Origin: Armatimonadetes bacterium CG2_30_59_28
GTDB lineage: Bacteria > Armatimonadota > Abditibacteriia > CG2-30-59-28
Assembly: GCA_001872605.1 (NCBI GenBank)
Contig: MNXM01000153.1
Coordinates: 5,100 to 69,099, forward strand
Length of the DNA: 64,000 bases
Reading direction: 5' to 3'
A program made the translations under genes and the position numbers. Positions 36,050 through 50,862 of the stretch are shown here, piece after piece. Within the stretch, counting starts at the first letter, position 1. Every line of letters begins with the position of its first letter. The notes beneath the pieces were generated by a model. The model was not told the origin of the DNA. It saw only the letters and a list, made by a program, of their open reading frames with translations, and searched no databases.

Positions 36050-38380
36050 CTACAAGCGTGTCTCCTTCAGCCGCAGTGCGTTGGAGATGACGGAAACCGA
36101 GCTGAATGTCATCGCCGCCGCGGCGATCATCGGGCTCAGAAGCAGCCCTGATAAAGGATAGAGCACTCCGGCCGCAATGGGAATACCGAGACCATTATAC
36201 AGCAACGCGAAGAACAGGTTCTGCCGAATGTTCCGCATGGTGGCTTTGCTCAGCCGGCGCGCCCGAACAATCCCCCGCAAGTCGCCCTTGACGAGCGTCA
36301 CGCTTGCGCTCTCCACGGCCACATCGGTGCCGCTCCCCATCGCGATACCCACGTGTGCCTGGGCCAGGGCGGGAGCGTCATTGATACCGTCACCGGCCAT
36401 GGCCACGGTGTGCCCGTCGGACTGAAGTCGTTTGATAATACTGCCCTTGTCCTCCGGCAGAACCCCCGCCTCCACTTCGTCAATCCCCAATTGGCTGGCA
36501 ACCGCCTGCGCAGTGGCCAAGTTATCGCCAGTCACCATGATCAGCCTGATACCGTCGGCGCGCAGATCACGAATTGCTTCAAGCGTTGTCTCTTTGATGG
36601 GATCGGAGACGCCGAAAACTCCGGCAAGTTGTCCGTCCACAGCAACGAACATCACGGTCTGCGCCTGCGCTCGCAGTTCGGCGCTTTTCCGTGCTCCAAG
36701 TTCAGTGTCCACGGCGAATTCGTTCATCAATGCTTGGTTCCCGATCGCGACCTCTCGACCGTCCACCTTGCCGGTAACCCCCTTGCCGGTGGTCGAGGCA
36801 AATTCTTCCGCAGGAGTCACTGGGACGCCTCGATCGTGCGCTCCTGCGACCATCGAGGCCGCGAGGGGATGCTCGCTGTTTTGTTCGAGGCTTGCGGCAA
36901 CACGGAGCAGCTCCGATTCGTCCATACTGCCGCAAGTGTAGATTGAGGTGAGTCTCGGTCTGCCTTCCGTCAGAGTGCCCGTCTTATCGGCGACCAGAGT
37001 GTCAACCCGTTCCATCACTTCGAGAGCTTCTGCGTTTCGGATGAGCACTCCCACGCTCGCGCCGCGTCCGGTTCCCACCATGATGGACATCGGGGTCGCC
37101 AACCCCAGCGCGCACGGACAGGCGATGATGAGCACAGCTACCGCATTGACCAGCGCGTAGGCCAACCGAGGTTCGGGACCGAAGATACTCCAGAGAAGAA
37201 AAGTGGCGGCGGCAACACCCACCACGATGGGCACGAAGTAGCCTGCAACCACATCGGCGACGTGTTGAATGGGGGCGCGGCTGCGCTGCGCCTCGTTGAC
37301 CATCTTCACGATGCGCGCGAGCAGCGTGTCACTGCCGACACGTTCCGCCTGCATGATAAAGCTGCCGGTTCCGTTCACCGTCCCGCCCGTCACCTTGTCT
37401 CCGGCTGCCTTTCCAACGGGCAGTGGCTCTCCCGTAATCATCGACTCATCCACCGGACTCCTGCCGTCAACCACGCTCCCATCGACGGGCACTTTCTCTC
37501 CGGGGCGCACGCGGAGCCGGTCACCAACCTGCACCTCTTCCAGTGGCACATCCACTTCGGCCCCCGCTTGGGCGACGCGGCGCGCGGTGCTGGGCGCCAG
37601 TCCCAGCAGAGCCTTGATGGCGCTGCTGGTCCGGCTGCGGGCCCGCAACTCAAGTATCTGCCCGAGCAATACCAGAGTGACGATCACCGCGGCGGCCTCA
37701 AAGTAGACAGCGACCTGACCTCCGTGACCGCGGAAGGACGCGGGGAAGATGTCCGGCGCCAGCGTCGCGATGGTACTGTAGACATACGCCGTTCCGGTCC
37801 CGATCCCGATGAGGGTGAACATATTCAGGTTTCGCGTCTGAATGGATCTCCATGCCCGCTGAAAGAATGGGAATCCTCCCCACAGCACCACCGGGGTCAC
37901 GAGAAGCAACTGAATCCAGTTCTTCGCTGTGTGGGACAACACTCTCCCCACCGGATCTCCGGGAATCATCGCGGCCATCGCCAGTGCAAACACCGGCACG
38001 GTGAAGACAATGGAGACCCGGAAGCGGCGCGTCATGTCCTCGAGTTCCGGGTTCGCCTCCTCAAGCACCACGGCCTGTGGCTCCAGCGCCATGCCGCACT
38101 TGGGGCATGTGCCCGGCCCCACTTGACTGACCCCCGGACACATCGGGCAGATGTAAGTTGCACCTTCGGACGTTTGCTGCGTCTTCTTCTCTTGTGGGAG
38201 GTATTCCTGCGGGTTTTGATTGAATTTCTCCAGGCAATGTCTGCTGCAGAAGTAGTATGGAGTCCCCTGGTAATCAAAAGAGCCGGCCGCCGACTCCGGC
38301 TCAACCTTCATCCCGCAGACTGGGTCTATTCGGCCGCCATTGGTCTCTCCGCCCTTGTGATGACAACAACATTCCTCCAT
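36050..38380 (-). CDS. copA: Cu(I)-translocating P1B-1 ATPase with YHS and HMBD N-terminal domains
   Basis: DPVCGM...YYFCS..C (YHS), YICPMC...[42 protein letters not shown] and MTFSS. Confidence 0.95.
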
Positions 38381-38395
38381 TGTTAATCACCTCCT

Positions 38396-39274
38396 TCAAG
38401 TTGTACCGGTAGCGATTCGGCGCGCCCCCGCGTACTTTTGCACGTAGTATGGATCATCCAGATTGCCAATGGTTACGCGACCGCGGCCGCTGGAAGCGTG
38501 GAGGAACTCGTTGCCTCCAACATAGAGACCTACGTGAGAAATGCCCGGTTTGTAAGTATTCGTGAAGAAGACAAGGTCCCCTGGTTGCAGGGCGCCATCG
38601 ACCTGTTGTCCCAATTTGAACAACTCCGCTGCAGAGTGAGGCGCGACGATACCATGCCGCCGCAACGTTGCGAGAATCAAGCCGGAACAGTCCATCCCGC
38701 TGAAGCTTGCCCCGCCCCAAAGATACGGGACCCCCAGGAACTCGCGAGCGGTCTCCAAGAACGGATGCAACTTTGCTTTGGCGCCATGCGCTCGTCTCAA
38801 TTCCGTCTCCATCTCATGCAGACGGTTTGCGAGGTTCTGCAAGTTGTCCTCAGCGGAGACCACCTGCTCGCCCAATTTTCGCAGTTGATTTTCACTCTCC
38901 AGCAATTGCACCTGCCATTGCCTCAACTGCTCGTGAGATTCGCTCGTCGAGGTCGTCGGCATCAACGCCAACGGCTGCAAAGGCGCACGCGCCGCAACGG
39001 ACTTTGACGATTGAAGGTCCGCATCGGGTGTCGGGGTGCTCTCTCGCCGCGCGGCTTCCAGTCGTTTGGCCGACGCTTCCAGCTCTCCCCGCGAGATTGC
39101 TCCCTCGGCGAACAAACGCTCATCGAGGGCATACTCCTCCAAAGCTTTGTCGAGAGCGATTTTGGCAGAAACCGACAGAGTTGCAGGTTCGAGTTGCGCC
39201 TCGGTCCTTCCAGGACTGGTTGGGGCGACGAACACGGCGGCAATGGAGAGTAAAAGAATCGGGCGAGACGTCAC
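38396..39274 (-). CDS. Secreted coiled-coil + NlpC/P60 peptidoglycan endopeptidase
   Basis: Signal peptide, coiled coil, LGVPYLWGG, DCSG, PGDLVFF, SHVGLY, FLHAS; GTGA overlap with the TolC gene. Confidence 0.88.
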   Translation of the reverse strand: MTSRPILLLSIAAVFVAPTSPGRTEAQLEPATLSVSAKIALDKALEEYALDERLFAEGAISRGELEASAKRLEAARRESTPTPDADLQSSKSVAARAPLQPLALMPTTSTSESHEQLRQWQVQLLESENQLRKLGEQVVSAEDNLQNLANRLHEMETELRRAHGAKAKLHPFLETAREFLGVPYLWGGASFSGMDCSGLILATLRRHGIVAPHSAAELFKLGQQVDGALQPGDLVFFTNTYKPGISHVGLYVGGNEFLHASSGRGRVTIGNLDDPYYVQKYAGARRIATGTT

Positions 39275-40614
39275 TGCCTCTCCCCTCTGACCGGCGCGCC
39301 GACCGCCCGTTCCAGCATGTCAATCGCGACGTTCTGCTCAAACAGCGCCTGGACGAGGTTGGTCCTCGCCCGGGTCAAGGCAGACAGAGCATCCAGCGGC
39401 TCGAGGTTGATGCCTTTGCCTGACGAATAGCGCAGTTGCGCCAGTCGGTAATCTTCCTCGGCAGCCTTAACGGCGGCTTGCGCGGTGGTGATATTCTGCG
39501 TTGCGGCGGTGAGTTGCAGCAGCGAAGTATGCACCTGCTTCGTCACGATCAACTTGATTTGCTCCCCGTCCTGCCTAACCTTCTGCACGTCGGCTTTCGC
39601 TTCGGCAACCTGCGCCTTGCGCGATCCGCCGTCCAGCAATGGCAGACTGGCTATCACACCCACCGTTACACCGGCATCGTTTCCCGCTCCGCGCTGGGAT
39701 CGCCAGTCGGTTACCGCGGCGAAGTCGACCTGGGGCTTGAACGCGCTGTGAGCGACTTTGACCTCGGCCCCTGCAGCTTCGAGCCGTTTGGAGACGGCCT
39801 GTAACTCGGGCCGTGATTCCAGGGCGAGTTGTTGCACCGTGTCGCCTTCCGGGTTCAAGTTCTCTAACGCCAATTGTTCGGACGGTACAAAATCGGACTT
39901 CTGGTCGACACCCATCACGGTCTTCAGGTCTACCCGCGCGATGTTGAGGTCCCGCCGCGCGTCGGTCAACTTCTGTTGTGCGTCTGCCAGGTCGGCTTCG
40001 TTCCGCAAAACATTGACCAACGGCACTTTTCCCGCGTCGTACATCGCCCGATCGATTCTTAATCGCTCCTGGTCGGCGTCAACAAGGGCTTGGAAGATGT
40101 CCACAACCGCGCGGGTCCACAACACACGACGATAGGCGACCCGTGTGTCCAACTGAATGTCCTGGCGCACGGTCTCCTCGTCGGCCTGTATGGACTCATA
40201 CAGAGACCGGGCAGACGTGACACGGCTTTTCAGCCGTCCGCCGGTGTAGAGCGGAAAGAGAGCCGTCAGATTTTGGTTGAACGACGCGCTGGGCCCTATC
40301 ATTTCCATGTCACTCGGCATCACGGAAGACGGCCCGGACAGCATGTTGACACCATCACCCGCGGTGACGTGGCTGGTTGCCGAGCCAATCAGGCGCGTGT
40401 CGGCCACGGCTCGGCGCAACCGCGCGCGCGCGCCCTCAACCTCAGCACTCTGGCCTTTTACCATCGGACTTTCCCGAAGGGCCGTTGTGACGGCCTCGTT
40501 CAGCGACAGCGGCCCCGACAGGACAAAGCGTTCTCCCGGACTTTGCCCCCAACTTACAGCGGTCCAGCCCAGAAGAGCGAGACCTCCCCATAGACAGATT
40601 TGCATTCTTTGCAC
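39271..40614 (-). CDS. TolC family outer-membrane channel
   Basis: Signal peptide, LSLNEAVTTAL, PLYTGG, SRPELQA, PLLDGG, YSSGKG, duplicated helical halves. Confidence 0.88.
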   Translation of the reverse strand: MQRMQICLWGGLALLGWTAVSWGQSPGERFVLSGPLSLNEAVTTALRESPMVKGQSAEVEGARARLRRAVADTRLIGSATSHVTAGDGVNMLSGPSSVMPSDMEMIGPSASFNQNLTALFPLYTGGRLKSRVTSARSLYESIQADEETVRQDIQLDTRVAYRRVLWTRAVVDIFQALVDADQERLRIDRAMYDAGKVPLVNVLRNEADLADAQQKLTDARRDLNIARVDLKTVMGVDQKSDFVPSEQLALENLNPEGDTVQQLALESRPELQAVSKRLEAAGAEVKVAHSAFKPQVDFAAVTDWRSQRGAGNDAGVTVGVIASLPLLDGGSRKAQVAEAKADVQKVRQDGEQIKLIVTKQVHTSLLQLTAATQNITTAQAAVKAAEEDYRLAQLRYSSGKGINLEPLDALSALTRARTNLVQALFEQNVAIDMLERAVGAPVRGERQ

Positions 40615-40620
40615 TTCCTT

Positions 40621-41277
40621 TCATGATGATTCAACGGTGTTCGCAGGTTGGCTGCGACTTCCCTGCAATGGAGTTTGCGGTCGCAAAGCCCGCTGCCGAA
40701 GCTCTTCGGCCCGCTTGCGTTGTGAGGGAGTCAGGATTTGCATCGCGCGCTCCCAATACTCCAGTTTCAGATTCCCATACTCTCTCGAAAACTGAGACAC
40801 CGGTTCGGCCCGGCGCTGAAGCTCTACGAGATTCCCCTTGCCGGACTTGGCCTCCTCCTCGGCAAACTCACGGAACTTTGTGGCTTCATTGTCGAGTTCT
40901 CGTTTCAGAGGACCGGAGAAACGTCTCCAATCTTCCGTCAAAGCTCGCAGCTTGGACTGCTGTTGTGGGGTCAGGTTGAGAGCGCCTGCGCCCTCCAGCA
41001 AAACACCCATCTCAGGCGCGAAGCGAGTGGGCGCGGGACCTCCGGGGATCACGCGGCTCTGAACGACCGGAGGCGGCTGCGGCTTCATTGTCTCCTGCCA
41101 ACGAGAGTACACCACGTAGGCAGAGACCATCAGGGCGACAGCAATCCCCGGCCCGAAGTTGAGCCGGCGGTACCTGCTATTGTTGGTAGACTGCCCAACC
41201 ACCGTGGAGTCTGGGGAATGTTGCTGATTGCGCGATCTCTTGTTCAAGCTTTTTTCTCGATTTCTGTTGGTTGACAA
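40621..41277 (-). CDS. Membrane-anchored Spy/CpxP-like periplasmic helical protein
   Basis: TM anchor, then LNLTPQQQSKL ... ILTPSQRK (LTxxQ motifs); start uncertain. Confidence 0.55.
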   Translation of the reverse strand: MSTNRNREKSLNKRSRNQQHSPDSTVVGQSTNNSRYRRLNFGPGIAVALMVSAYVVYSRWQETMKPQPPPVVQSRVIPGGPAPTRFAPEMGVLLEGAGALNLTPQQQSKLRALTEDWRRFSGPLKRELDNEATKFREFAEEEAKSGKGNLVELQRRAEPVSQFSREYGNLKLEYWERAMQILTPSQRKRAEELRQRALRPQTPLQGSRSQPANTVESS

Positions 41278-41286
41278 GGCCTTCTA

Positions 41287-41533
41287 TTGCTGAGCACAAT
41301 TCGGCGCGTAAACCGGACGCAACTGCGCAATGCTATTCTGACTGAAACGGTTGAACTCGACATCAGCAGCCACGCTCATATCGAGGGTTACAAGGATGGA
41401 CTGACAGAGCAATATATGCAACGAGCGGTTTTGGAGGGCGCGGTAATCGCAGACTACCTCGACCGAGGGCGCAAACTGCTCTTGCGTTCCCGACGACACG
41501 GTTTGGCATCCAAACTATAAGATTCGAAAGTAA
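41287..41533 (+). pseudogene. DUF4258-like toxin remnant (internal deletion + frameshift)
   Basis: ISSHAH...RAVLEGAVIADYLDRGRKLL in one frame; C-terminal VPDDTVWHPNYKIRK* in the +1 frame. Confidence 0.65.
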
Positions 41534-41544
41534 CGGTGATCAAC

Positions 41545-41751
41545 ATGCGTCGATGCTCCAATTGCGACAAGCAAACCGAATTTTGTTTTACAACCAACAC
41601 CTATACCAGAAAAGATTCCGAGGTGGAAACAGCCAGTCAGATCACTGAATGCATCTCACCGGTATTTGATGCGGCCAAGGGGCTGCACAAATTACCCGCG
41701 CCCAGAGTCTCTGTCACCTTCCCCGAAACGGTCCAGGCCAAAGCGGCGTAG
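41545..41751 (+). pseudogene. YgiT/MqsA-type zinc-finger antitoxin remnant lacking the second CxxC
   Basis: MRRCSNC...TTNTYTRKDSEVE directly followed by TASQITE; only one CxxC; follows the DUF4258-like gene. Confidence 0.55.
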
Positions 41752-41785
41752 CCACTCCCATACACACCCACACCCCCATACTTCT

Positions 41786-44700
41786 TCACTCCTTCCCCTC
41801 CTGCTCCGCCAACTGCGCTGTCAGATCCTGGTCTGTTTCGGTGACCGGCCATTCCCAGTCGCGGTTGAGGAATGCCTTGTTGAGCCACTTAATGAAGTCG
41901 TCCACGTACGTGTGCATAATTGGGATATCGAAGAGACTCAGAATCGTTCCAATGATCAGTCCCCCGATGACGACGACCCCGACGGACGAATAGGCATCCA
42001 TTCCGGTCTTGGGGAAGAAGGCAACGGGTATCATCACGATAATGGTGATGATCGAGGTCATCACAATGGGGCGCATCCTTTGCGGGCAAGCCTCAGTCAC
42101 GGCCTGGTCGCGCGGGACACCGCGGTCCCGATAGCGCATGATCATATCGATCAGCAGGATGGCTGTCGTGATGTCCATGCCGGTCAATACAATGACCGCC
42201 ATGATCGACACCGTGGAAAATGCCTGGTGTGTCAGCCATAGAGCCACGAACACACCTGCCATCTCCAGAGGCAGGGAAAAGCCCATTTGCAGCGGTTGCA
42301 GGAACCCACGGAACTGGGCTACCAGAACGAGCAGCATGAATATGATCGCCAGCACCAGTCCGGTGAGGAGGCGCCGGAACGAGTCCATCATCTGCGTCAT
42401 GTCGCCGCGAACTTCCAGACCGTAGCCTGGGGGCCAGTTCAGTTCCGCCATGGACTTCATCTCTATCTCCATCGCGAGGTCCATCGAGGGGGGGCCATTG
42501 CGACGATAGTATCCGAGGATCGTGTTGACCCGTCGGATACCGTCGTGTTCGATGACCGTCGGTGCGCGTCGCGGCTCAAGATCTGCGACGCTTTTGAGCG
42601 GGACCTGCCTTCCACCGTCGCCGGTGATGTACAATTCCTCCAGATTCTTCGAGGTGGCTCGGCTATCGGGTTTATACCGGACCTGGATGACATTCTGGCG
42701 AATGTTGGGGATCCGATAGAATTCGTTCGTAAACCCGCCGCGCAGAGAGTAGTAGGCTTGCTCGGCGATTTCGTTCACGGTCAATCCCAACTCCTGTGCG
42801 CGGCTGGGATTCACTTTGACTTCCCAGTCCGGCAGCCCCATGGTCCAACTGGTAGCAACCTGGTGCATGCCGTAGGTATGCTCCGCAATCTCTGCGACTT
42901 GCTTTCCCATTTGATCGAGGGTATTGAGGTCAGGGCCGTAGACAATCAACGCGATGGGCGCCTGCGAAGAGGCCATGACATCCGACCCCATTTCCTTGAT
43001 CTGGAAGCGGCGGATTCCCGGGATGGTGTCCATCGCCTCTCTCTGTACGCCGTCTATTACCTTCCACATGTCGCGCGTCCGTTCGCTCCGGTCGGACAGC
43101 GTCAACATAAATGTGGCGGAATTCACGAGCGGCATTGCATAGCCGGTAAAGTAGGTTCCCGTGCTTTCCAGCATGTTCTCAAAGCCCATCTCGATGGAGG
43201 CTTTCTCAACCTCAGGATGTCTCAAGATTATGCGCTCAACCTGCTCCACCGCGCGCTCGGTCTGTTCGAAAGACGTGCCTGGCTGCATTTCCAGTATCCC
43301 ATAGGCTTGCCCTACATCCGCCAACGGCATCATCTCGCTGCCGATGAAGTAGTAGAAGCCGAATCCCACGATGACCGTTGCCAGGATGCGCGCCATGTTG
43401 GAAAAGCGATGTTTCAGCATCCAGGCGATGATTTTGGAATAACCCGTCTCAAGTCGGTTCAAGAAATGCTGGAAGGGCATCAACGCATAGTTGTAAAGAT
43501 ATGCGTAAGGTCTAAACCGCAGGTCCTTTTCGCGTTCATCTTCGTGCCGCAACAGATTGGCGCACAACAGAGCGGTCAGGGTGAAGGAGACCAGCATCGA
43601 GGCCATCAGACCGAAGATGAGCGGCCAGACCAGCTCGCGAAACATCAACTCCACAATACCGCCGCAGAAGAGCATTGGGGCAAGCGCCAGAACGATCATG
43701 AAAGTTGAGGCTATGACGGCCAGTCGCACCTCCGCAATGCCGTCGATGGTGGCTTCCTTTGGGCTCTTGCCCATCCGCAGGTGGCGTTCCACCGAGTGGA
43801 CATCAATGATGGTGTCATCCACCAGACGGCCAATGGACAAGAGAAGACCGATCAGCGTCCCGCTGTTGAGCGTCATCCCAGCCGCGTGAAGACACAGAAT
43901 GGCGATCGCCAGAGACATGGGAATGGTAATCAGGGAAATCAGGGTTCCCCGCCACTCCCCCAGGAAGAAGAAGACCACGATGCCGCACAGGAGGATCGCT
44001 ATCGCCAACTCATGCATCATGTTCTCAAACAGGATGTCCACAAAGTGGGCGTTGCTGTAGGACTCCTCGAATTTGACTCCCGGGTTATTGCTTTCTATCT
44101 GGCGCAGAACCTTGTTGACGCCCTGGATCGTCTTCCAGGAACTCGCCCAGGGGTTCTGGAGCACAGCGACCTCGATGGAAGGGATGACTTCCCCCATCGT
44201 CCCCGGCTCGTGTTTGAGAAAATGATAAGCGCTGCGTCGCTCCCAGTGGGTGTCGAGCACCCGGGCGACGTCTTTCACATAGACAATCCGCGGGCTTTGT
44301 GCCGGTCCCAGTAAAGTGGTTTGTGGTTGGGGGTTGGGGGTTGACGAGGACGCCTGTGAACTTCCTCCCATCGTCCCCATGCCGCTTCCACCGGCGCCGC
44401 CAGCGCCGCGCTGGGTGCGGCCGGTGGAAGGATTGACGGCGGCAACGGGATAGTTGAGCACCATGTCTGCGCTGATCGCGCGCGTGTCGAAGCGGACAAT
44501 AGCCTCGTTGTCTCCAGATGTCAGAGTTCCCCCAGGGCGGCTCACGTTGTATCGGTCGATGGCGTTGCGCACGTCCAGGATGGAAAGCCCGTAGGCTGCG
44601 GCTTTCTCCCGATCAACAACCACCTGCAACTGCCGGCGATATCCGCCGAACGGAACAACCGAGTAGACGTCCGGCACGACCTTGAGCCGGTTCACGACCT

Positions 44701-45241
44701 CGTTATCAGCGAATTCACGTAACCCGACCTTGTCCCAGCCCTTTCCTGTAAGGCTTAGAGTGACAATCGGGATATTAAGAGGATCAATGGGAAGCACCCA
44801 GGAAGGTTTCAGGTTGGCGCCGGTCGCGGGCAGGTTTGCCTGTACCACATTCATCAGAGCTTGAACGTCGAAGAGGGCCTTCTTCATGTCAACGCCATAC
44901 CAGAATTCCAGACTGACAATGGAGAACCCATCCTGTGACGTGGAGCGGATATAGTGGAGGTTCTGGATGTTGACCATCTGCTCTTCGATGGGTTTGCTGA
45001 TGTACAGCTCCATCTCCTCGGCAGACAGACCGGGCATCATCGACACGACGCCGATCATGGGGCTTTCGACATAGGGCATGAACCGGCGCGGCATGAACTT
45101 AAGAGCCAGAACTGATAGCACCACCATGGCGAAGTAGAAGGCGATGATTACATACGGGTGCTCAATCGACCACTTATGGATCAGATGCAGCGGGTTGACG
45201 CCGCGACTTTCCCAGCGAGGTTTGTGAACAGAATCAGCCAT
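41786..45241 (-). CDS. RND efflux permease (AcrB/CusA superfamily), Met-rich, atypical TM4/TM10
   Basis: GLSAEEME...IE, VVPFGGYRRQLQVVVD, IGRLVDD, RMRPIVMTS, VVIGGLIIGTILSL. Confidence 0.93.
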   Translation of the reverse strand: MADSVHKPRWESRGVNPLHLIHKWSIEHPYVIIAFYFAMVVLSVLALKFMPRRFMPYVESPMIGVVSMMPGLSAEEMELYISKPIEEQMVNIQNLHYIRSTSQDGFSIVSLEFWYGVDMKKALFDVQALMNVVQANLPATGANLKPSWVLPIDPLNIPIVTLSLTGKGWDKVGLREFADNEVVNRLKVVPDVYSVVPFGGYRRQLQVVVDREKAAAYGLSILDVRNAIDRYNVSRPGGTLTSGDNEAIVRFDTRAISADMVLNYPVAAVNPSTGRTQRGAGGAGGSGMGTMGGSSQASSSTPNPQPQTTLLGPAQSPRIVYVKDVARVLDTHWERRSAYHFLKHEPGTMGEVIPSIEVAVLQNPWASSWKTIQGVNKVLRQIESNNPGVKFEESYSNAHFVDILFENMMHELAIAILLCGIVVFFFLGEWRGTLISLITIPMSLAIAILCLHAAGMTLNSGTLIGLLLSIGRLVDDTIIDVHSVERHLRMGKSPKEATIDGIAEVRLAVIASTFMIVLALAPMLFCGGIVELMFRELVWPLIFGLMASMLVSFTLTALLCANLLRHEDEREKDLRFRPYAYLYNYALMPFQHFLNRLETGYSKIIAWMLKHRFSNMARILATVIVGFGFYYFIGSEMMPLADVGQAYGILEMQPGTSFEQTERAVEQVERIILRHPEVEKASIEMGFENMLESTGTYFTGYAMPLVNSATFMLTLSDRSERTRDMWKVIDGVQREAMDTIPGIRRFQIKEMGSDVMASSQAPIALIVYGPDLNTLDQMGKQVAEIAEHTYGMHQVATSWTMGLPDWEVKVNPSRAQELGLTVNEIAEQAYYSLRGGFTNEFYRIPNIRQNVIQVRYKPDSRATSKNLEELYITGDGGRQVPLKSVADLEPRRAPTVIEHDGIRRVNTILGYYRRNGPPSMDLAMEIEMKSMAELNWPPGYGLEVRGDMTQMMDSFRRLLTGLVLAIIFMLLVLVAQFRGFLQPLQMGFSLPLEMAGVFVALWLTHQAFSTVSIMAVIVLTGMDITTAILLIDMIMRYRDRGVPRDQAVTEACPQRMRPIVMTSIITIIVMIPVAFFPKTGMDAYSSVGVVVIGGLIIGTILSLFDIPIMHTYVDDFIKWLNKAFLNRDWEWPVTETDQDLTAQLAEQEGKE

Positions 45242-45375: not shown

Positions 45376-45978
45376 TCAGCAGCCTCCACCTCGCGAACCG
45401 CAGCAGGAGCCGCCCCCGCTGTGGTCGTGACCCTGAGTCCCGGCCTTCCCTTCCTGCCGGGAAGTCGCCCCGACAGTCTCCGGCACGACCTGGTAACCGC
45501 CAGACTCCAGTGCGGCGATCAACTGGGTCAGCGTCGCGTTCCCCTGGGGACCGAATTGCACGAGGACCGTTCCTTCCTTCTCCTGCACTCGGGCGCTTTT
45601 GACCCCGGGGGTGGCTTCCAGGGCCTTTACCGCACTCTCCGACGAGGATTCGCTTGAGTTGGGCTTGATCTTCAAGACCAAAGACAGGACGTAGGGTTCC
45701 CCGTGCGCATTACGGGCCTTGCCGGCTGCGATCGACATGAACTGGACGTCCGTCTTTTCGGGAGCAAATTGGACAACGGTTCTTTTCTGTTTGAGATCAG
45801 TCGAGACCGCCGCAACGCCGGTAACTTTCTTCAGACCGGATTCCAGGTTCGGCACGCACGCGGCGCATCGGAAACCCTCCACCTCGTATGTCGCCTGCTG
45901 CGGCTTGGATAAAGCAGACAACACAGCGGTACACATTCCTGTAACTAACACTCCCATCAATGCTAACCTGATATTCAT
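45376..45978 (-). CDS. Secreted tandem HMA-domain metal chaperone
   Basis: Signal peptide; first domain YEVEGFRCAACV...LKKVTGV; second HMA-like fold lacks CxxC; His/Cys tail HDHSGGGSCCGSRGGGC. Confidence 0.8.
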   Translation of the reverse strand: MNIRLALMGVLVTGMCTAVLSALSKPQQATYEVEGFRCAACVPNLESGLKKVTGVAAVSTDLKQKRTVVQFAPEKTDVQFMSIAAGKARNAHGEPYVLSLVLKIKPNSSESSSESAVKALEATPGVKSARVQEKEGTVLVQFGPQGNATLTQLIAALESGGYQVVPETVGATSRQEGKAGTQGHDHSGGGSCCGSRGGGC

Positions 45979-46043: not shown

Positions 46044-48788
46044 TTAACCCGTCTTTTCCAGCTTCATGCCGCACTTCGGACAATCCCCTGGCTTGTCTGA
46101 CTTCACTTCCGGGTGCATCGGACAGGTATACATCGCTTCGGCTTCAACACCTCCTTTACTTACCGGCTCCAAACGCATCCCGCACTTGGGACAGTCGCCC
46201 GGTTTGTTCGACTTGACCTCCGCGTGCATCGGGCAGGTGTAAGTCACCTTGGATTTCACTTCCACCCGGACCTTGGGCTTGGGAGGCGCACCGTAGGACT
46301 TGTGCGATACAACGGTCGGCTCAAGGCGCATGCCGCATTTTGGGCAGTCGCCCGGCTTGTTCGATTTGATCTCCGGGTGCATCGGGCAACTGTAGACTTT
46401 CCCGGGAGCGGTTCTTGACCCCTGAGCGGGTGACTTCATCGCGTGGTCTCCATGGCCGGTTCCCGCTGGCTCTTCCACCGGGGTGACTTGAGGCGGCGCT
46501 TCTTCCGAGGGTTTCAGCGTTGCGGGACCCTCTTTCCCCCATGCTGTCGGGAACACGGAATCCCCTTCCTTCAGCTTCTCGTGCCCGGCCCAGATGACCG
46601 AGTCGCCTTCGTTGAGCCCCGACAGGACGACCGTCCGCTTGCCATCGGTGGGCCCCAGCGTCACCATCACTCGATGCGCCCGGAACTGGCCGCCCTTGGT
46701 CATCGGCTCCAGCTTCATGCTACACTTTGGGCATTTGCCCGGCTTGTCCCGCACAATCTCCGGGTGCATGGTGCAGTAGTACTGCATCTTGCCGGTCTCC
46801 TTGCGCCCGATAGCCACCCAGACTGCCGGCTGCTTTTCGGTATAGAAGACACCGGTCGCTTGTGGTGTAACGTGCATAATTGCCTGGTTGGGAACAGTGA
46901 TAGCCTCCGGAATTCCTCCCGTGGCAATTCTCATCGTGATAAATTCGCCGGGGAGAAAGCGCTTATCCGGGTTGGGTGTGAGCGCCTCAACCACGGCGGT
47001 GCGCGCGGTTGGGTCGACAGCGGGGAAGACCGACGTAACCTTTGCGACAATGGGTCTATCGGGGTGTTTTGCGCTGGTCACCATTATACGGTTACCCACC
47101 TGAATGTTGTTAAGGTCCTGCTCCGCGACATTGGCTTGCAGTCGGATGGGATCGATCTCAGCAATTCGCAGGATCGGGGTGCCCGGACTGACAAGGACCC
47201 CGGGGCTGACGAGCCGCTGAATGACGACGCCCGGCCGAGTCGCGCGGATTTCGGTGTAGCCTCGCACGGTGGTGGCGGCGGTGAAGCCTGCCGCAGTTTG
47301 TCCCACCATGGCCGACATCTGCGCCACCTTCGACGATGCGCCCTTCACCTCTGACTCGGCGGAGCGAACCATCGACTTCGTCGCAGTGATGCCCGCCCGC
47401 GCCTGATCGACTTTTGCCTGGGTAGCAGAGACTACGGCGCGGTTCTGCTCGATACGAGCCTTCACGCGATCTACCTCCGCCTCGGCTGTTGCGATCATTG
47501 TTCGGGTCACATCCACATTGGCCCGATAGTGATGCACGTGAGAGTCCGCGGTTTTGATCATCGCCTGCGCCTTGCGAACCCTTGCCTGAACCTGGTCCAC
47601 TTTGGCCCTGGCGCTGTCGTGCTGAGCCTTTTCCCGCTGAAACTCCTCCGCCGAAATGGCGCCCTGCTTAACCAATTGCTGTTCCCTCTTAAGTTCTTCG
47701 ACCCAGTAGGCATAGTCCGCCTGTGCGGCTACGAGGTCGGCCTGGGCGTCGCCTAAATCCGCGCGGGCCGCCTCTGACTCCGCCTCCATCGCGTCAGACT
47801 CGTGCTCCATCGCCACGAGTTCTTGACGACTCGCGAGCAGCTTCTTTTCGGCGACAGTCAGTTCCTTCTGCGACTCAACCACCATTGCTCTCGCGCTCTC
47901 GACGTCCCGCTGGGCCTCCGATAACATCGCCTGACTTCGGTTGACCTCCGCTTCAGCCTGAGACCGCGCGGCACTGGCTTTTCCTACCTGAGCGGAGGCT
48001 TCACGCTGGCCGTGGGCGGCAGCTTCGCGACTGTACGCAGCCTCCCGTTCCCGCGCTCCCAGCTCCACGCTGTCCAGGCGCGCGATCAGTTGTCCGGGCT
48101 GCACGCGGTCGCCGGGATAGACCGGCAGCGACACGATCTTGCCGACGACGCGTGGATAGATATCCTCATCGTTCTTTGCGACAACCTGTCCGGTATAGGT
48201 GACCGCTGCCTCGAAATCACGACGCGCAATCTTCTCGATGGCGACCGGCGCCGCACCGACAGGAGGTTTCATCGCACTCATATCCATCGCCTGCGCCTCA
48301 ATCACCGTCATGGAGCCTGGCTTGCGGTACTTCTTGACGACGTGACGTACACCGATCAGAATGACCACCAAAGTCAACGTCCCGACCACAAATTGCCGGT
48401 TGAGCAGTTTCCGGGGAGACAGCTTCATCCCTCTCCGGGCGGACATGACAACCCCCAGGAGAACAAGTACGCCTATTCCGAGAAACAAGAAGAGCCGGGA
48501 TCGCGGGTTTGCTTGCTTCATCCCCGGCATCGCCCTATCTCCTCCGGCGTTCTGCTCCTGCTTGCCCATGTCACTCATGCCTTCGTGGCTGTCCATGTCG
48601 CTGCCCGACTGAGCGTGCACGGGAGCCAGCCACACCGTCCCGCCGGGGTGCGGAGCCCACGCTGTCAGGAGCGTCAGGCACAGACTCATCAGAGCAACCG
48701 TTATCCTGTCGGATTGACGCGCCGCCTCAAGGAATCTCTCACCTCCGCGGAGAGACTTGGTCGTTTTCTTACATTGATGCTTCAACAT
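46044..48788 (-). CDS. RND periplasmic adaptor (MFP) with very long hairpin and four HMBD repeats
   Basis: IYPRVVGKIVSLPVYPGDRVQPGQLIARLD, IRATRPGVV, VDPTART, four YxCxMH-x-CPKCxMxL repeats; RBS AGGGAGG before ATG 48788. Confidence 0.9.
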   Translation of the reverse strand: MLKHQCKKTTKSLRGGERFLEAARQSDRITVALMSLCLTLLTAWAPHPGGTVWLAPVHAQSGSDMDSHEGMSDMGKQEQNAGGDRAMPGMKQANPRSRLFLFLGIGVLVLLGVVMSARRGMKLSPRKLLNRQFVVGTLTLVVILIGVRHVVKKYRKPGSMTVIEAQAMDMSAMKPPVGAAPVAIEKIARRDFEAAVTYTGQVVAKNDEDIYPRVVGKIVSLPVYPGDRVQPGQLIARLDSVELGAREREAAYSREAAAHGQREASAQVGKASAARSQAEAEVNRSQAMLSEAQRDVESARAMVVESQKELTVAEKKLLASRQELVAMEHESDAMEAESEAARADLGDAQADLVAAQADYAYWVEELKREQQLVKQGAISAEEFQREKAQHDSARAKVDQVQARVRKAQAMIKTADSHVHHYRANVDVTRTMIATAEAEVDRVKARIEQNRAVVSATQAKVDQARAGITATKSMVRSAESEVKGASSKVAQMSAMVGQTAAGFTAATTVRGYTEIRATRPGVVIQRLVSPGVLVSPGTPILRIAEIDPIRLQANVAEQDLNNIQVGNRIMVTSAKHPDRPIVAKVTSVFPAVDPTARTAVVEALTPNPDKRFLPGEFITMRIATGGIPEAITVPNQAIMHVTPQATGVFYTEKQPAVWVAIGRKETGKMQYYCTMHPEIVRDKPGKCPKCSMKLEPMTKGGQFRAHRVMVTLGPTDGKRTVVLSGLNEGDSVIWAGHEKLKEGDSVFPTAWGKEGPATLKPSEEAPPQVTPVEEPAGTGHGDHAMKSPAQGSRTAPGKVYSCPMHPEIKSNKPGDCPKCGMRLEPTVVSHKSYGAPPKPKVRVEVKSKVTYTCPMHAEVKSNKPGDCPKCGMRLEPVSKGGVEAEAMYTCPMHPEVKSDKPGDCPKCGMKLEKTG

Positions 48789-48904
48789 CGTTCTTTCCTC
48801 CCTGCGTACAATCAAAGGGCAGTGGGTTGAGTCTACTCCTCATGCAGGTGCAATGAGAAAAGAGCACTCGATCCGAGAGGAGAGGTGTCCCCTCCCCAGC
48901 ACTG

Positions 48905-49330
48905 CTAATGGTCCTCGTCGTGTCCATGGCCCTCGTGGGCATGGCCAATCTTAGCTTCCAAGAACATCCCGCATTCCGAGCATTTTCCTGGTTTGTCCCG
49001 TTTCACTTCAGGATGCATGGGGCAGATGTAAGTGACCTTGGTTCCTTCCGGCGCTTTTGCCTGGAGGAACATTCCGCACTTTGGGCATTTCCCCGGCTTG
49101 TCCTGCTGGACGTCGGGATGCATCGGACACGTGTACGTGATATTCGCGGCGTCCGTGCCACTTTCACTGCCGGATTCCGGCGTCGCTGCCGGCGCTTCCG
49201 GCGGAGTCGCCATCGGAGGGGGAGCCACTCCCCCTTCTGACGACAAGTTGCTGCTGTTCTTGCTGCACCCCCACAGGGCGAAAGCTGCGATTCCGAGCAG
49301 CAGTCCCAGGATTGTTACGCGTTTCAACAT
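48905..49330 (-). CDS. Lipoprotein with two HMBD repeats and His-rich tail
   Basis: Lipobox LWGC; YTCPMHP...CPKCGMFL, YICPMHP...CSECGMFL; HAHEGHGHDEDH. Confidence 0.88.
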   Translation of the reverse strand: MLKRVTILGLLLGIAAFALWGCSKNSSNLSSEGGVAPPPMATPPEAPAATPESGSESGTDAANITYTCPMHPDVQQDKPGKCPKCGMFLQAKAPEGTKVTYICPMHPEVKRDKPGKCSECGMFLEAKIGHAHEGHGHDEDH

Positions 49331-49588: not shown

Positions 49589-50242
49589 TCAGTGAGTATG
49601 TCGATGGCCACCTCCTTCATCGCCCTCGTGATGGTCGGGAGAGGGAGTGGCGGTTTGGTGATGTTCCTCCGCCTCGGCAGGCATTTCAGTTTCCGCAGGG
49701 GTTTGCATGTTCTCGTGGTGACCGCCGGGAGACGCGCCACCGTGGTGATGAAACACTTCTTCAGCAGGCGCCACGAGGGGCACGGCGATTCTAACGGCCG
49801 CCCCCTCAACGAACACCATGCGGCTCCCAATATCCGCCGTTTGCAGGATCAGCAGCACGGTGACGGCCAACACGGCCACGAACGCCCACATACCTTTGGG
49901 TTGCGACTGACTCTGCCAAAAGCTCCAGAGGGTGAGGGCCCCCGCAAGCCCGAGGGTCATCCATCCTACTGCCTTGTGCGTTTGCATCATGGCATGTATC
50001 GTCGCATTGTGAGGGAAGGACTCCTGCGCCCCCAGACCAGTCAGAAAAGCAAGCAAAACGCCCGCAGTGCCCAGATAAAGGCACGTTCTGCCAGCGCCCG
50101 AGAAGAACGGTTTCTTCAGAACCGCTCCGAGAAAGTATAGCAACAGTGCGCTGGGGAACAGCGCGATAGGGAAATGAACGAACATGGGGTGGACATTGTA
50201 GACCTCCCGAATTCCCTGAAAACCCAAGTGACTGAAATTCAT
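49589..50242 (-). CDS. DUF2231-like membrane protein with His-rich C-terminal tail
   Basis: NVHPMFVHFPIAL, LTGL, THK, TADIGSRMVF; 4 TM; HHH-rich tail. Confidence 0.82.
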   Translation of the reverse strand: MNFSHLGFQGIREVYNVHPMFVHFPIALFPSALLLYFLGAVLKKPFFSGAGRTCLYLGTAGVLLAFLTGLGAQESFPHNATIHAMMQTHKAVGWMTLGLAGALTLWSFWQSQSQPKGMWAFVAVLAVTVLLILQTADIGSRMVFVEGAAVRIAVPLVAPAEEVFHHHGGASPGGHHENMQTPAETEMPAEAEEHHQTATPSPDHHEGDEGGGHRHTH

Positions 50243-50421: not shown

Positions 50422-50862
50422 TTAGACGGTTTGAGGAGGGGCGCGAAGGCGCCTGGGTTGTTTAGTGTTGGATTGCAGGAGTAAATTGGGATGTTGAGCA
50501 AGTGCGAGCGCGGGCCCTATTTGGGGGACGATGAGAATGGGCCCGGGGACGTGTGCGCCGACGCTATCGTTCGTCCGTTCACATACGCGCTTCTCGGGAA
50601 GGGGATAGCACTCGTCGAGAGGGGCCCGGGGGGAAGCCTTCAGGGCGCAACCGCAATCTTTCCCTGGGGAGGCGGCGGAGTCGCAACAGCAAGAGCCACC
50701 GGATCCCGAACTCGGGCAACGCACTGAGACGGCGCGTAATTGCCCATTTTCCCTTGGGCAGCAGAGGCGCATCGGCGCAATTACTGCCACCGATGCCACC
50801 CACACCAGCAGCAGAAGCAACGCCGTTTGCGCCCTGATTCTACAATTGCCTTGCAGGTTCAT
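50422..50862 (-). CDS. Cys-rich exported leader protein ending in RAPP (DUF2946/CutF/CruR-like arrest peptide candidate)
   Basis: Hydrophobic signal-like segment, 11 Cys (CC, CCC, CGC), C-terminus RRLRAPPQTV*; GGAG RBS; first ORF after the promoter. Confidence 0.72.
   Translation of the reverse strand: MNLQGNCRIRAQTALLLLLVWVASVAVIAPMRLCCPRENGQLRAVSVRCPSSGSGGSCCCDSAASPGKDCGCALKASPRAPLDECYPLPEKRVCERTNDSVGAHVPGPILIVPQIGPALALAQHPNLLLQSNTKQPRRLRAPPQTV

Follow-up and report, generated by a model that had tools for sequence, protein, structure and literature searches.

Gene content of the locus and classification of the permease

In silico analysis of a 64,000-nucleotide stretch of contig MNXM01000153.1 from Armatimonadetes bacterium CG2_30_59_28 (here called the window) indicated a gene cluster containing an RND permease, a periplasmic adaptor, a TolC-type channel and several further genes (Table 1). 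Translation of the permease ORF gave a stop-free, intact protein of 1151 aa, which matched PF00873 over its full length with 629.5 bits (cut-off 28) and is thus of the AcrB/AcrD/AcrF type within the RND superfamily. Its best NCBIfam profile was RND_permease_2 at 542 bits, below cut-off; scores on NF033617, NF000282 and TIGR00915 were 542, 418 and 359 bits against cut-offs of 1250, 1250 and 940, and TIGR00914, the profile of the HME (CusA/CzcA) family, gave 295 bits against a cut-off of 701. The AlphaFold model of the pump (mean pLDDT 74.5) showed a secondary structure that agrees with 12 TM helices and two large periplasmic loops, and Foldseek aligned it to all RND structures with TM scores of 0.73–0.78. 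The top PDB sequence match was MdtB (294 bits); by sequence, the pump is closer to multidrug pumps than to CusA.

Table 1. Genes of the locus and residues of the pump, with their positions in the window.
Feature	Position	Strand	Evidence or remark
CopA-type P1B ATPase, N-terminal YHS and HMBD	36050–38380	-	E1-E2_ATPase, Hydrolase, YHS, HMBD; CPC motif seen
TolC-type outer-membrane factor (OEP)	39271–40614	-	PF02321 OEP, E = 1e-54; conserved in operon
LTXXQ (Spy/CpxP/ZraP-type) periplasmic protein	40621–41277	-	PF07813
RND inner-membrane permease P0001 (the pump)	41786–45241	-	PF00873 ACR_tran, E = 1.3e-188
Exported protein, two HMA domains and Cys-rich tail, between adaptor and pump	45376–45978	-	PF00403 x2, CopZ/MerP-like
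Periplasmic adaptor (MFP), up to 923 aa, four HMBD modules	46044–48815	-	PF19335 x4 stretches, HlyD_D23, RND_mfp
Lipoprotein, two HMBD modules and His-rich tail	48905–49330	-	PF19335 x2 stretches
TM11 motif PQRMRPIVMTS with R1055, T1062	42053–42085	-	Alignment
TM10, residues 1010–1039, with M1022, D1023, T1025, T1026	42125–42214	-	Alignment
M948, M951, M952, N-terminal extension of TM8 (AcrB 863–867, PC2-TM8 linker)	42386–42400	-	
M920, M924, M928 (AcrB A840/M844/A848)	42458–42484	-	i, i+4, i+8, one face of PC2 helix; predicted helix 919–933
D754-V-M756, first PC2 strand/loop	42974–42982	-	Family-invariant; aligns within 1–2 residues of CusA M672, ambiguous
E636-M637-M638, top of TM7 (AcrB S562-F563-L564)	43328–43336	-	Family-invariant Met cluster
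R506 (AcrB Q439, start of TM5)	43724–43726	-	Probable partner of D480
TM4, residues 460–489, with R472, D475/D476, D480, H482	43775–43864	-	Alignment and predicted helix 460–489
Gly/Ser/Ala-rich low-complexity insertion, residues ~270–316, docking subdomain	44294–44434	-	pLDDT < 50, predicted disordered (AlphaFold)

The tripartite arrangement, with MFP and OEP genes accompanying the permease, is conserved in related loci, and the adaptors of 69 of the 70 related loci carry HMBD, YtkA-like or Cupredoxin_1/cupredoxin-like domains (part of them Pfam-confirmed). Inspection by eye of the adaptors of the genome's two other RNDs revealed no metal-type motifs. Roughly every second related locus has a homologue of the LTXXQ gene next to the pump, and a counterpart of the two-HMA protein was absent from the 80 related loci. 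Members of the family nearly always lie among copper-handling genes: the NC10 member has a cupredoxin, a CzcB-like adaptor and a CDF transporter nearby, another adjoins a multicopper oxidase, a further one adjoins CopA/YHS/HMBD genes, and the copies on cyanobacterial plasmids adjoin a MerR-type regulator, FixH, a cupredoxin and a multicopper oxidase. A CopA gene was present within 10 kb in only ~17 of the 80 loci.

Phylogenetic analysis, with CusA and Synechocystis CopA as outgroup, recovered the family as a single clade (100% SH-aLRT) within the HAE-1-like radiation; its members come from Armatimonadota, Eremiobacterota/Xenobia, NC10/Rokubacteria and cyanobacterial plasmids. This clade, together with the copper-type genes found nearby in every sampled phylum, supports the original prediction of an uncharacterised heavy-metal RND subfamily. 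The family, for which no paper or solved structure was found, is an uncharacterised RND family that appears drug-pump-like by ancestry. Within the host phylum it occurs in 64 of 151 genomes and 47 of 98 genera, and this patchy, single-copy distribution fits an accessory resistance determinant.

Relay residues and the position of the relay cation

The strings on which the original prediction relied were found exactly in the ORF translation, with TM4 (residues 469–488) reading SIGRLVDDTIIDVHSVERHL, TM10 (residues 1019–1032) reading LTGMDITTAILLID and TM11 (residues 1055–1063) reading RMRPIVMTS. In AcrB, D407/D408 are bridged by K940 while E414/N415 are contacted by R971, and AcrB without K940 is inactive (PMC8277102). 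A MAFFT alignment of the pump with E. coli AcrB, MdtB, MdtC and CusA (from NC_000913.3) showed that the Asp pair D407/D408 is retained as D475/D476, and R971 and T978 as R1055 and T1062. The other relay residues differ: K940 and N941 are both replaced by threonine (T1025, T1026), and E414 and N415 by histidine and serine (H482, S483). In addition, an arginine stands at L404 (R472) and aspartates stand at V412 (D480) and S938 (D1023). The changes proposed earlier from an alignment by eye, i.e., those at K940/N941, L404, V412, S938 and E414, were thus each borne out. TM10 (TVSIMAVIVLTGMDITTAILLIDMIM) contains no Lys or Arg upstream of the cytoplasmic RYRDR, so that the canonical Lys at 940 cannot be recovered by a register shift. 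Of the ~120 closest database proteins, virtually all keep the substitutions, as do more distant members.

The states of positions 404 and 940 were compared across 142 diverse RNDs representing 50%-identity clusters. None of the 31 sequences with Arg or Lys at 404 had Lys or Arg at 940, and none of the 50 with Lys or Arg at 940 had either residue at 404. An RND tree for which the relay columns had been masked showed the relay types scattered among one another, with at least 11 changes of the R/K404 state; joint changes of D408 and of a cation at 404 or 940 were seen in ~11 of 12 independent pairs, with no opposite changes (sign test, p ~0.001). This mutual exclusion, together with the repeated changes on the tree, indicates that the relay cation moved from TM10 (K940) to TM4 (R404), a relocation that is recurrent among RNDs and not special to the pump. 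It is common to the pump and 31 of the 142 clusters, including a second pump of the same genome (a paralogue on contig C300 that has GRLVDD together with AVSN); another paralogue, on contig C289, has the canonical relay. Unlike the pump, most of these Arg-404/no-Lys-940 RNDs (unnamed, here 'type B') keep V412, E414, N415, V938 and N941 and are without the Met cluster described below, and metal-type adaptors were absent from those checked. Neither a characterised nor a structurally solved type B member was found, leaving the class of pumps with a TM4 relay cation without a structure in our searches. The Lys940-centred relay of AcrB is not the sole workable design, a TM4 arginine having replaced it repeatedly, and the second Asp is retained only alongside one or the other cation. 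These RNDs could serve as natural 'mutants' for questions of protonation state and stoichiometry.

In the pump, Arg472 would sit on TM4 a helical turn above the Asp pair (i-3/i-4) and provide a counter-charge in cis in place of Lys940, while D475/D476, R1055 and T1062 would keep doing proton uptake and release; with these four AcrB positions retained, protons would be the default coupling ion. Asp1023 may pair with Arg472 in the pump's branch, forming a reversed-polarity ionic lock between TM4 and TM10. The NC10/Rokubacteria branch, however, lacks D938, as do two of three cyanobacterial sequences (one plasmid-borne); R/K404 is kept in each of these. Positions 938–941 read M-x-T-V in the NC10 branch and S-x-S-S, S-x-S-A or D-x-A-G in the cyanobacterial members. 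Since D1023 is not family-wide, the reversed lock cannot be a general mechanism, and of the 'charge-swapped relay' originally proposed it is the relocation of the cation to TM4, exclusive with K940, that stands, and not a general R(TM4)/D(TM10) lock. The TM4 aspartate at 412 (Asp480) co-varies with the new TM5 arginine Arg506, with which it would pair, and not with TM10. The two sites hold Asp/Arg in the branches of Armatimonadota, Eremiobacterota and NC10 and Asn/Met in two NC10-type members, and Asp/Arg is also present independently in Synechocystis CopA. His482 takes the place of Glu414, the AcrB contact of Arg971.

Methionine positions and the Gly-rich insertion

The periplasmic part of the pump had been described as Met-rich and reminiscent of the CusA Met triad. 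The alignment did not bear out this likeness: none of the nine CusA Met positions checked (three of the triad and six of the relay) is Met in the pump, and the triad M573/M623/M672 aligns to I/L/V, with an uncertainty of 1–2 residues around M756. The results showed instead a different cluster of methionines (Table 1), which all four branches of the family have without variation and which is missing from 37 other RNDs. M948 and M951 are family-invariant, M952 being Glu in the NC10 branch, and no residue type other than Met was gained at eight or more of the invariant positions. Among the three strings cited originally as Met-rich, DVMASS holds the family-invariant D754 and M756, whereas the other two have no family-invariant residues, M652 of ILEMQ being conserved only within the closest clade. 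AcrB residues 562 and 837 can be cross-linked and are thus in contact (PMC13139501), so that the PC2 helix bearing M920/M924/M928 would touch the top of TM7. All four groups, i.e., EMM636–638, D754/M756, M920/924/928 and M948/951/952, would sit at the junction of the periplasmic PC2 subdomain and the membrane. The insertion described as Gly/Met-rich does exist, but a conserved metal site in it is not supported; its length varies from 4 to 66 aa in homologues, it is predicted to be disordered and its composition is 26% Gly, 16% Ser, 15% Ala and just 4% Met.

Probable substrate, alternatives and relation to known pumps

We consider that the system is probably a three-part envelope efflux pump, proton-driven and exporting periplasmic Cu(I) and likely Ag(I). 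Gene context and residue chemistry make Cu(I)/Ag(I) the most likely substrate, and this role most likely arose separately from CusA. The metal-binding domains of the adaptor would pass soft metal ions to the Met cluster, with thioethers as ligands, and adaptor, permease and TolC-like channel would together expel the metal from the periplasm with the proton gradient.

The top profile and PDB matches of the pump are multidrug pumps and the family is nested in the HAE-1-like radiation, as would be expected of an ordinary HAE-1 exporter of amphiphiles or drugs, or of an organic copper chelator or copper-damaged envelope molecules, that travels with copper genes and whose methionines line a hydrophobic entrance; the region of the Met cluster corresponds to the entrance of the TM7/TM8 groove for amphiphiles in AcrB. 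Such a role is unlikely, however, given that metal-binding domains of three types are fused to the adaptor across several phyla, which a pump that never meets metal would hardly explain, that methionine alone was gained at eight or more invariant positions, and that paralogous pumps of the same genome are without these features. Export of a divalent cation (Zn, Cd, Ni, Co or Cu(II)), with the extra Asp, His and Glu residues serving cation/proton exchange as in CzcA or ZneA, would be suited by D480, H482, D1023 and E993 in the membrane domain, by the LTXXQ (ZraP-like) gene of the operon, by the CDF transporter next to the NC10 member, and by the lack of strict copper specificity of HMBD and HMA domains. 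We nevertheless regard it as quite unlikely, as the signature invariant in the periplasmic part is built on methionine, a feature typical for Cu(I)/Ag(I) but not for divalent ions, CopA-type ATPases with YHS/HMBD, multicopper oxidases and cupredoxin-like domains occur as neighbours, and the HME1/2 TM4 motif DFG-DGA-VEN is missing from the pump.

The remaining alternatives concern the relay. Sites for Na+ in other membrane machines typically have Asp and Thr/Ser ligands, and Thr stands at both K940 and N941 in the pump's branch, so the D-x-T-T of TM10 and the TM4 Asp pair might form a Na+ site or an extra proton site and thereby change the coupling ion or stoichiometry. This is very unlikely in view of the lack of family-wide conservation of D938 and T941, the retention of D407, D408, R971 and T978, and host organisms from soil and fresh water, where Na+ coupling is not obviously needed. 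A non-pumping or degenerate subunit, of which the altered relay would be the sign, might be suspected from the loss of AcrB activity without K940 (PMC8277102), yet the ORF is intact, shows 60–80% identity throughout the phylum and has the altered residues without variation, pumps of the Arg-404 type have evolved many times over, and, the gene being single-copy, the operon offers no partner permease; we hold this to be highly improbable. For a Cu(I)/Ag(I) exporter, a more far-reaching version, which we regard as unlikely, would have coupling unlike that of both AcrB and CusA: a cis-neutralised Asp pair, the Arg(TM4)-Asp(TM10) reversed lock as repeat switch and a titratable chain D1023/R472/D475/D476/D480/H482, with another H+ (or Na+) stoichiometry or a metal route via the membrane domain, so that the pump, with its Met cluster, would represent a second and independent origin of a Cu(I) pump from drug-pump stock among RNDs.

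In comparison with E. coli MdtB/AcrB, the pump shares the fold, 12-TM topology and ACR_tran domain, the tripartite set-up with an adaptor and a TolC-type channel, and the residues D407, D408, R971, T978 and G403. It differs in lacking K940/N941, in its Arg-404 and the His/Ser for E414/N415, in the extra D412, D938 and R439, in the invariant Met cluster at the PC2/TM7/TM8 junction, in the metal-binding domains of its adaptor, and in a gene context of copper and not of drugs. With E. coli CusCFBA (HME4) it would share the probable substrate class and logic, i.e., proton-driven periplasmic metal export, Met ligands and a metal-binding adaptor, the metallochaperone-like periplasmic partner being CusF there and the two-HMA protein here. 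The structural match to CusA is as good as to any RND (TM 0.76), but the structurally aligned residues are only ~18–19% identical; in the tree CusA is part of the outgroup, its Met triad and Met pairs are not Met in the pump, and its relay D405/E939/K984 aligns to D/T/I, unlike HME4. HME1 and HME2 share the TM4 motif DFG-x3-DGA-x3-VEN (PMC3637150), which is absent from TM4 of the pump (SIGRLVDDTIIDVHS), and by this motif the pump falls outside these families. Membership in HME5 was likewise rejected on comparison with Synechocystis CopA, which is 24% identical and groups with CusA as outgroup.

Genes of the family are currently annotated as 'HAE1 multidrug exporter' or under the generic name 'efflux RND permease'. 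If the family exports copper or silver, counts of metal resistance are too low and those of drug efflux too high in Armatimonadota, Eremiobacterota, NC10/Rokubacteria and cyanobacterial plasmids, and RND metal specificity would have arisen at least twice, with methionines at different positions each time. The CopBAC/NrsBAC system of Synechocystis PCC 6803 (HME5, copper and nickel) is, like the present one, a copper-linked RND from a non-proteobacterial phylum. TM4 of its CopA (GSVVDDSIVDMEN) has the Asp-Asp pair and Asp-412, with Arg at the TM5 position, as in the pump; unlike the pump, it is without Arg-404 and the Met cluster and has Arg at the 940 position. PGAP assigns Synechocystis CopA to the CusA/CzcA family, and gives the cyanobacterial members of the pump's family a generic name only.

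The pump ORF and its relay residues

The coordinates of all features were derived and translated afresh. Translation of the RND pump gene gave 1151 codons without a stop, and Pfam identified the product as an AcrB-type RND permease (PF00873 at E = 1.3e-188); the strings SIGRLVDDTIIDVHSVERHL, LTGMDITTAILLID and RMRPIVMTS, quoted in the original prediction, were all found in this translation. The pump and its relatives were aligned with the references AcrB, CusA, MdtB and MdtC from E. coli K-12, and the alignment was redone on larger sets. The results showed that G403 of AcrB is kept in the pump, as are D407/D408 (D475/D476 in the pump), R971 (R1055) and T978 (T1062). The relay changes that had been read by eye were all real in the alignment with AcrB, i.e., the loss of K940 (T1025), the added Arg in TM4 (R472, at AcrB L404), the loss of N941 (T1026), the added Asp residues in TM4 (D480, at V412) and TM10 (D1023, at S938) and the change of E414 to His (H482); in addition, N415 is replaced by S483. 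A register shift giving K940 back, the alternative which the original prediction had named, was ruled out because TM10 of the pump is without any basic residue. The substitutions are also kept in homologues: the nearest ~120 database proteins are 67-84% identical to the pump over residues 380-1120, and nearly all of them carry GRLVDD[STN]IID[IV]H[AS] in TM4 and GMD[IV]TTA in TM10. Those with a name come from Armatimonadota, among them Chthonomonadaceae, Fimbriimonadaceae and the cultured Abditibacterium utsteinense, whose homologue shares 68% identity with the pump over the same residues. The predicted structure of the pump has a normal RND fold (mean pLDDT 74.5), and a Foldseek search with this model matched CusA and drug pumps equally (TM 0.73-0.78), so that the classes were not told apart. 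Clade-specific polar residues also lie inside other membrane helices, namely E993 in TM9 (AcrB G908; window ~42263-42265) and D1105 and H1110 in TM12 (AcrB F1021 and F1026).

Relay types across RND permeases

A census of the relay positions, in AcrB numbering, covered 142 sequences, made up of 135 full-length proteins that each represent a 50%-identity cluster, together with the four E. coli references, the pump and the two other RNDs of its genome. Type A (50 sequences) has a hydrophobic residue at 404, D407 with D408, and Lys/Arg at 940; type B (31 sequences) has Arg/Lys at 404, the same Asp pair, and Ser/Thr/Ala at 940; type C has a residue that is not basic at 404, D407 only, with Asn/Ala/Ser/Cys/Phe at 408, and Asn at 940, hence no cation. 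Across this alignment the numbers of relay acids and relay cations varied in step, and Arg/Lys-404 and Lys/Arg-940 had zero joint occurrences, either way, among the 142 RNDs. In a tree made after masking the columns of TM4 and TM10, the relay types were interspersed, with 11 changes of the Arg/Lys-404 state, and D408 and a cation at 404 or 940 co-changed in ~11 of 12 phylogenetically independent pairs, with 0 opposite changes (sign test, p ~0.001). Among the independent pairs for R404 versus K940, few differed in K940, because the neighbours of Arg-404 sequences are mostly of the Asp-Asn type; the pairs for D408 and a cation at either site were the informative ones. The source genome itself holds a canonical RND on contig C289 and one with GRLVDD and AVSN on contig C300. 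On this comparison of sequences, the exchange of K940 for an Arg in TM4 is an alternative that recurs widely and no peculiarity of the pump; thus, the altered relay of the original prediction stood, and its standing as something special to this protein did not, since the exchange recurs across RNDs.

In AcrB, K940 bridges D407/D408 (PMC8277102). The simplest reading of the census would be that the second relay Asp requires a buried counter-charge, which could come in trans from TM10 (K940) or, alternatively, in cis from an Arg one TM4 turn up, at i-3/i-4 spacing to the Asp pair. The top chains in a PDB peptide search with the GRLVDD-type TM4 had only Ile/Leu-404, and therefore there is apparently no solved Arg-404 pump; a literature search found GRLVDD and similar motif strings in no paper. 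Type C, with a single TM4 Asp and no buried cation, made up ~37% of the sampled clusters (53/142).

Family phylogeny and a family-specific Met cluster

In an IQ-TREE phylogeny of 71 sequences, the pump fell inside a 100%-supported clade of four branches: G1 (Armatimonadota), G2 (Eremiobacterota, Xenobia and others), G3 (NC10/Methylomirabilis and Rokubacteria) and G4 (cyanobacteria, known from copies on plasmids of Nostoc and Stanieria). Leptolyngbya, Acaryochloris and others gave further plasmid matches of this kind, at 44-47% identity. This clade is nested among HAE-1-like (drug-pump-like) sequences, with CusA and Synechocystis CopA as the outgroup. The latter is the HME5 copper pump (PMC7060636), and membership of the pump in HME5 was ruled out, the pSYSX-encoded CopA being 24% identical to it and falling in the outgroup; Synechocystis CopA independently has Asp at 412 and Arg at the TM5 position, as do G1-G3. 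Outside Armatimonadota, the family includes single proteins of ~1300-1520 aa (P0128 at L089:8001-12566, P0300, P0302 and P0306; one of these proteins is named Eremiobacteraeota) in which the PF00873 permease is joined to a PF02321 outer-membrane factor, an odd join of inner- and outer-membrane parts.

The original prediction had likened Met motifs of the periplasmic part to the CusA Met triad. This homology was ruled out: the aligned positions in the pump are I/L/V, and the alignment placed no Met of the pump at the triad or Met-pair positions of CusA. The sole near-match is M756, which lies within 1-2 residues of CusA M672, and we do not claim equivalence because the alignment is ambiguous there by that distance. 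The metal signature is instead a Met cluster of the family's own. Residues present in all of G1-G4 but in none of the other 37 aligned RNDs were E636-M637-M638 at the top of TM7 (AcrB 562-564), D754 and M756 in a PC2 strand/loop, M920, M924 and M928 along one side of a predicted PC2 helix (AcrB 840, 844 and 848), M948 and M951 in the PC2-to-TM8 linker (AcrB 863-867), D1082, Y1084 and the TM4 R/K404; M952, in the same linker, is kept except in G3. A disulfide link is possible between AcrB residues 562 and 837 (PMC13139501), and therefore, by homology, the EMM motif is in contact with the Met-bearing side of the PC2 helix. The entire Met set may come together as a single thioether-rich site where PC2, TM7 and TM8 meet. 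The Gly/Met-rich insertion named in the original prediction turned out to be a Gly/Ser/Ala/Pro-rich loop of the docking subdomain, variable in length (4-66 aa), of low confidence in the model and confined to the Armatimonadota branch, with only occasional GGMGG runs.

The added acids differ in their distribution. D412, H414 and R506 (pump numbering; AcrB Q439, at the start of TM5) were found in G1-G3, and D412 and R506 co-vary, being Asn and Met in two NC10-type members. This favours a salt bridge between TM4 and TM5 over an added TM4-TM10 relay link, and R506 is the likelier partner of D480; the predicted gain of this Asp was correct as to the residue and probably not as to its role. D938 is present in G1, G2 and Nostoc; G3 has Met at this position, and the other cyanobacterial members have Ser. 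A strict R404-D938 coupling was ruled out, as NC10 has Met-938 and two of three cyanobacterial sequences have Ser-938 with Lys-404.

Gene context, substrate and distribution

The pump lies in a copper island in which every gene is on the minus strand.

Features of the copper island around the pump (window positions)
Feature	Position	Strand	Remarks
Cys-rich ORF	50422-50862	-	146 aa; heads the island; end ...RRLRAPPQTV, with Arg-Ala-Pro-Pro motif
DUF2231 membrane protein	49589-50242	-	His-rich
Lipoprotein	48905-49330	-	two HMBD modules
Adaptor	46044-48815	-	four HMBD modules
Exported two-HMA protein	45376-45978	-	Cys-rich C-terminal HDHSGGGSCCGSRGGGC tail; between adaptor and pump
RND pump	41786-45241	-	
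Pump-to-LTXXQ gap	41278-41785		508 bp, non-coding
Weak promoter-like site	41543-41514	-	in the gap
LTXXQ protein	40621-41277	-	
TolC-like channel	39271-40614	-	
NlpC/P60 peptidoglycan hydrolase	38396-39274	-	between TolC-like gene and copA; start overlaps end of TolC-like gene
CopA-type ATPase	36050-38380	-	YHS and HMBD

The order adaptor-pump-(LTXXQ)-channel is kept across the best 80 related loci, and at least one of an HMBD, a YtkA/FixH-like domain (with Met motif) and a C-terminal Cupredoxin_1 is fused to the adaptor in 69 of the 70 loci whose adaptor ORF is near-complete (nine examples Pfam-confirmed). Inspection by eye found no motifs of the HMBD, YtkA or cupredoxin type in the adaptors of the source genome's two other RNDs. 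The metal-gene link also holds outside Armatimonadota: genes for a cupredoxin, a CzcB-type adaptor and a CDF transporter lie close to the NC10 member, one G2 member is accompanied by a multicopper oxidase and an adaptor that bears YtkA, a second G2 member has CopA, YHS and HMBD genes close by, and the cyanobacterial plasmid copies occur with a MerR-type regulator, FixH, a cupredoxin, a multicopper oxidase and a two-component pair. That metal domains are repeatedly fused to the adaptor of the pump itself argues most strongly for a soft metal ion as substrate, most likely Cu(I)/Ag(I), judging from gene content; protons would be the default coupling ion. The literature search returned nothing relevant on Armatimonadetes copper RNDs or YtkA-linked RNDs. 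Together with the clade support and the metal-type context, this upholds the main point of the original prediction, an uncharacterised, metal-linked RND subfamily whose relay is altered. Copper RND pumps based on Met appear to have arisen a second time in this family, and its chief interest lies there and in the natural relay variants thereby exposed; we found no prior study of it, its relay alteration recurs across RNDs, and its metal signature is distinct from the CusA triad.

The two-HMA protein, which may have a CusF-like role, had a counterpart in none of the best 80 loci, and its gene therefore seems to have been inserted into the operon recently. The pump-to-LTXXQ gap contains no inverted repeat and no terminator, and the genes downstream of it may have their own promoter.

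In a pattern scan of 185,579 species genomes, the best 80 loci (59-81% identity) were almost all from Armatimonadota. There the single-copy pump gene is carried by 64 of 151 genomes and 47 of 98 genera, and is both present and absent inside single genera, a patchy distribution that rules out a housekeeping or phylum-core gene and fits an accessory determinant. Pump homologues in four Armatimonadota genomes (G042, G125, G088 and G099) contain 1-2 in-frame stops (TAG, or TAG and TAA), so that each is either a pseudogene or the product of an assembly error.
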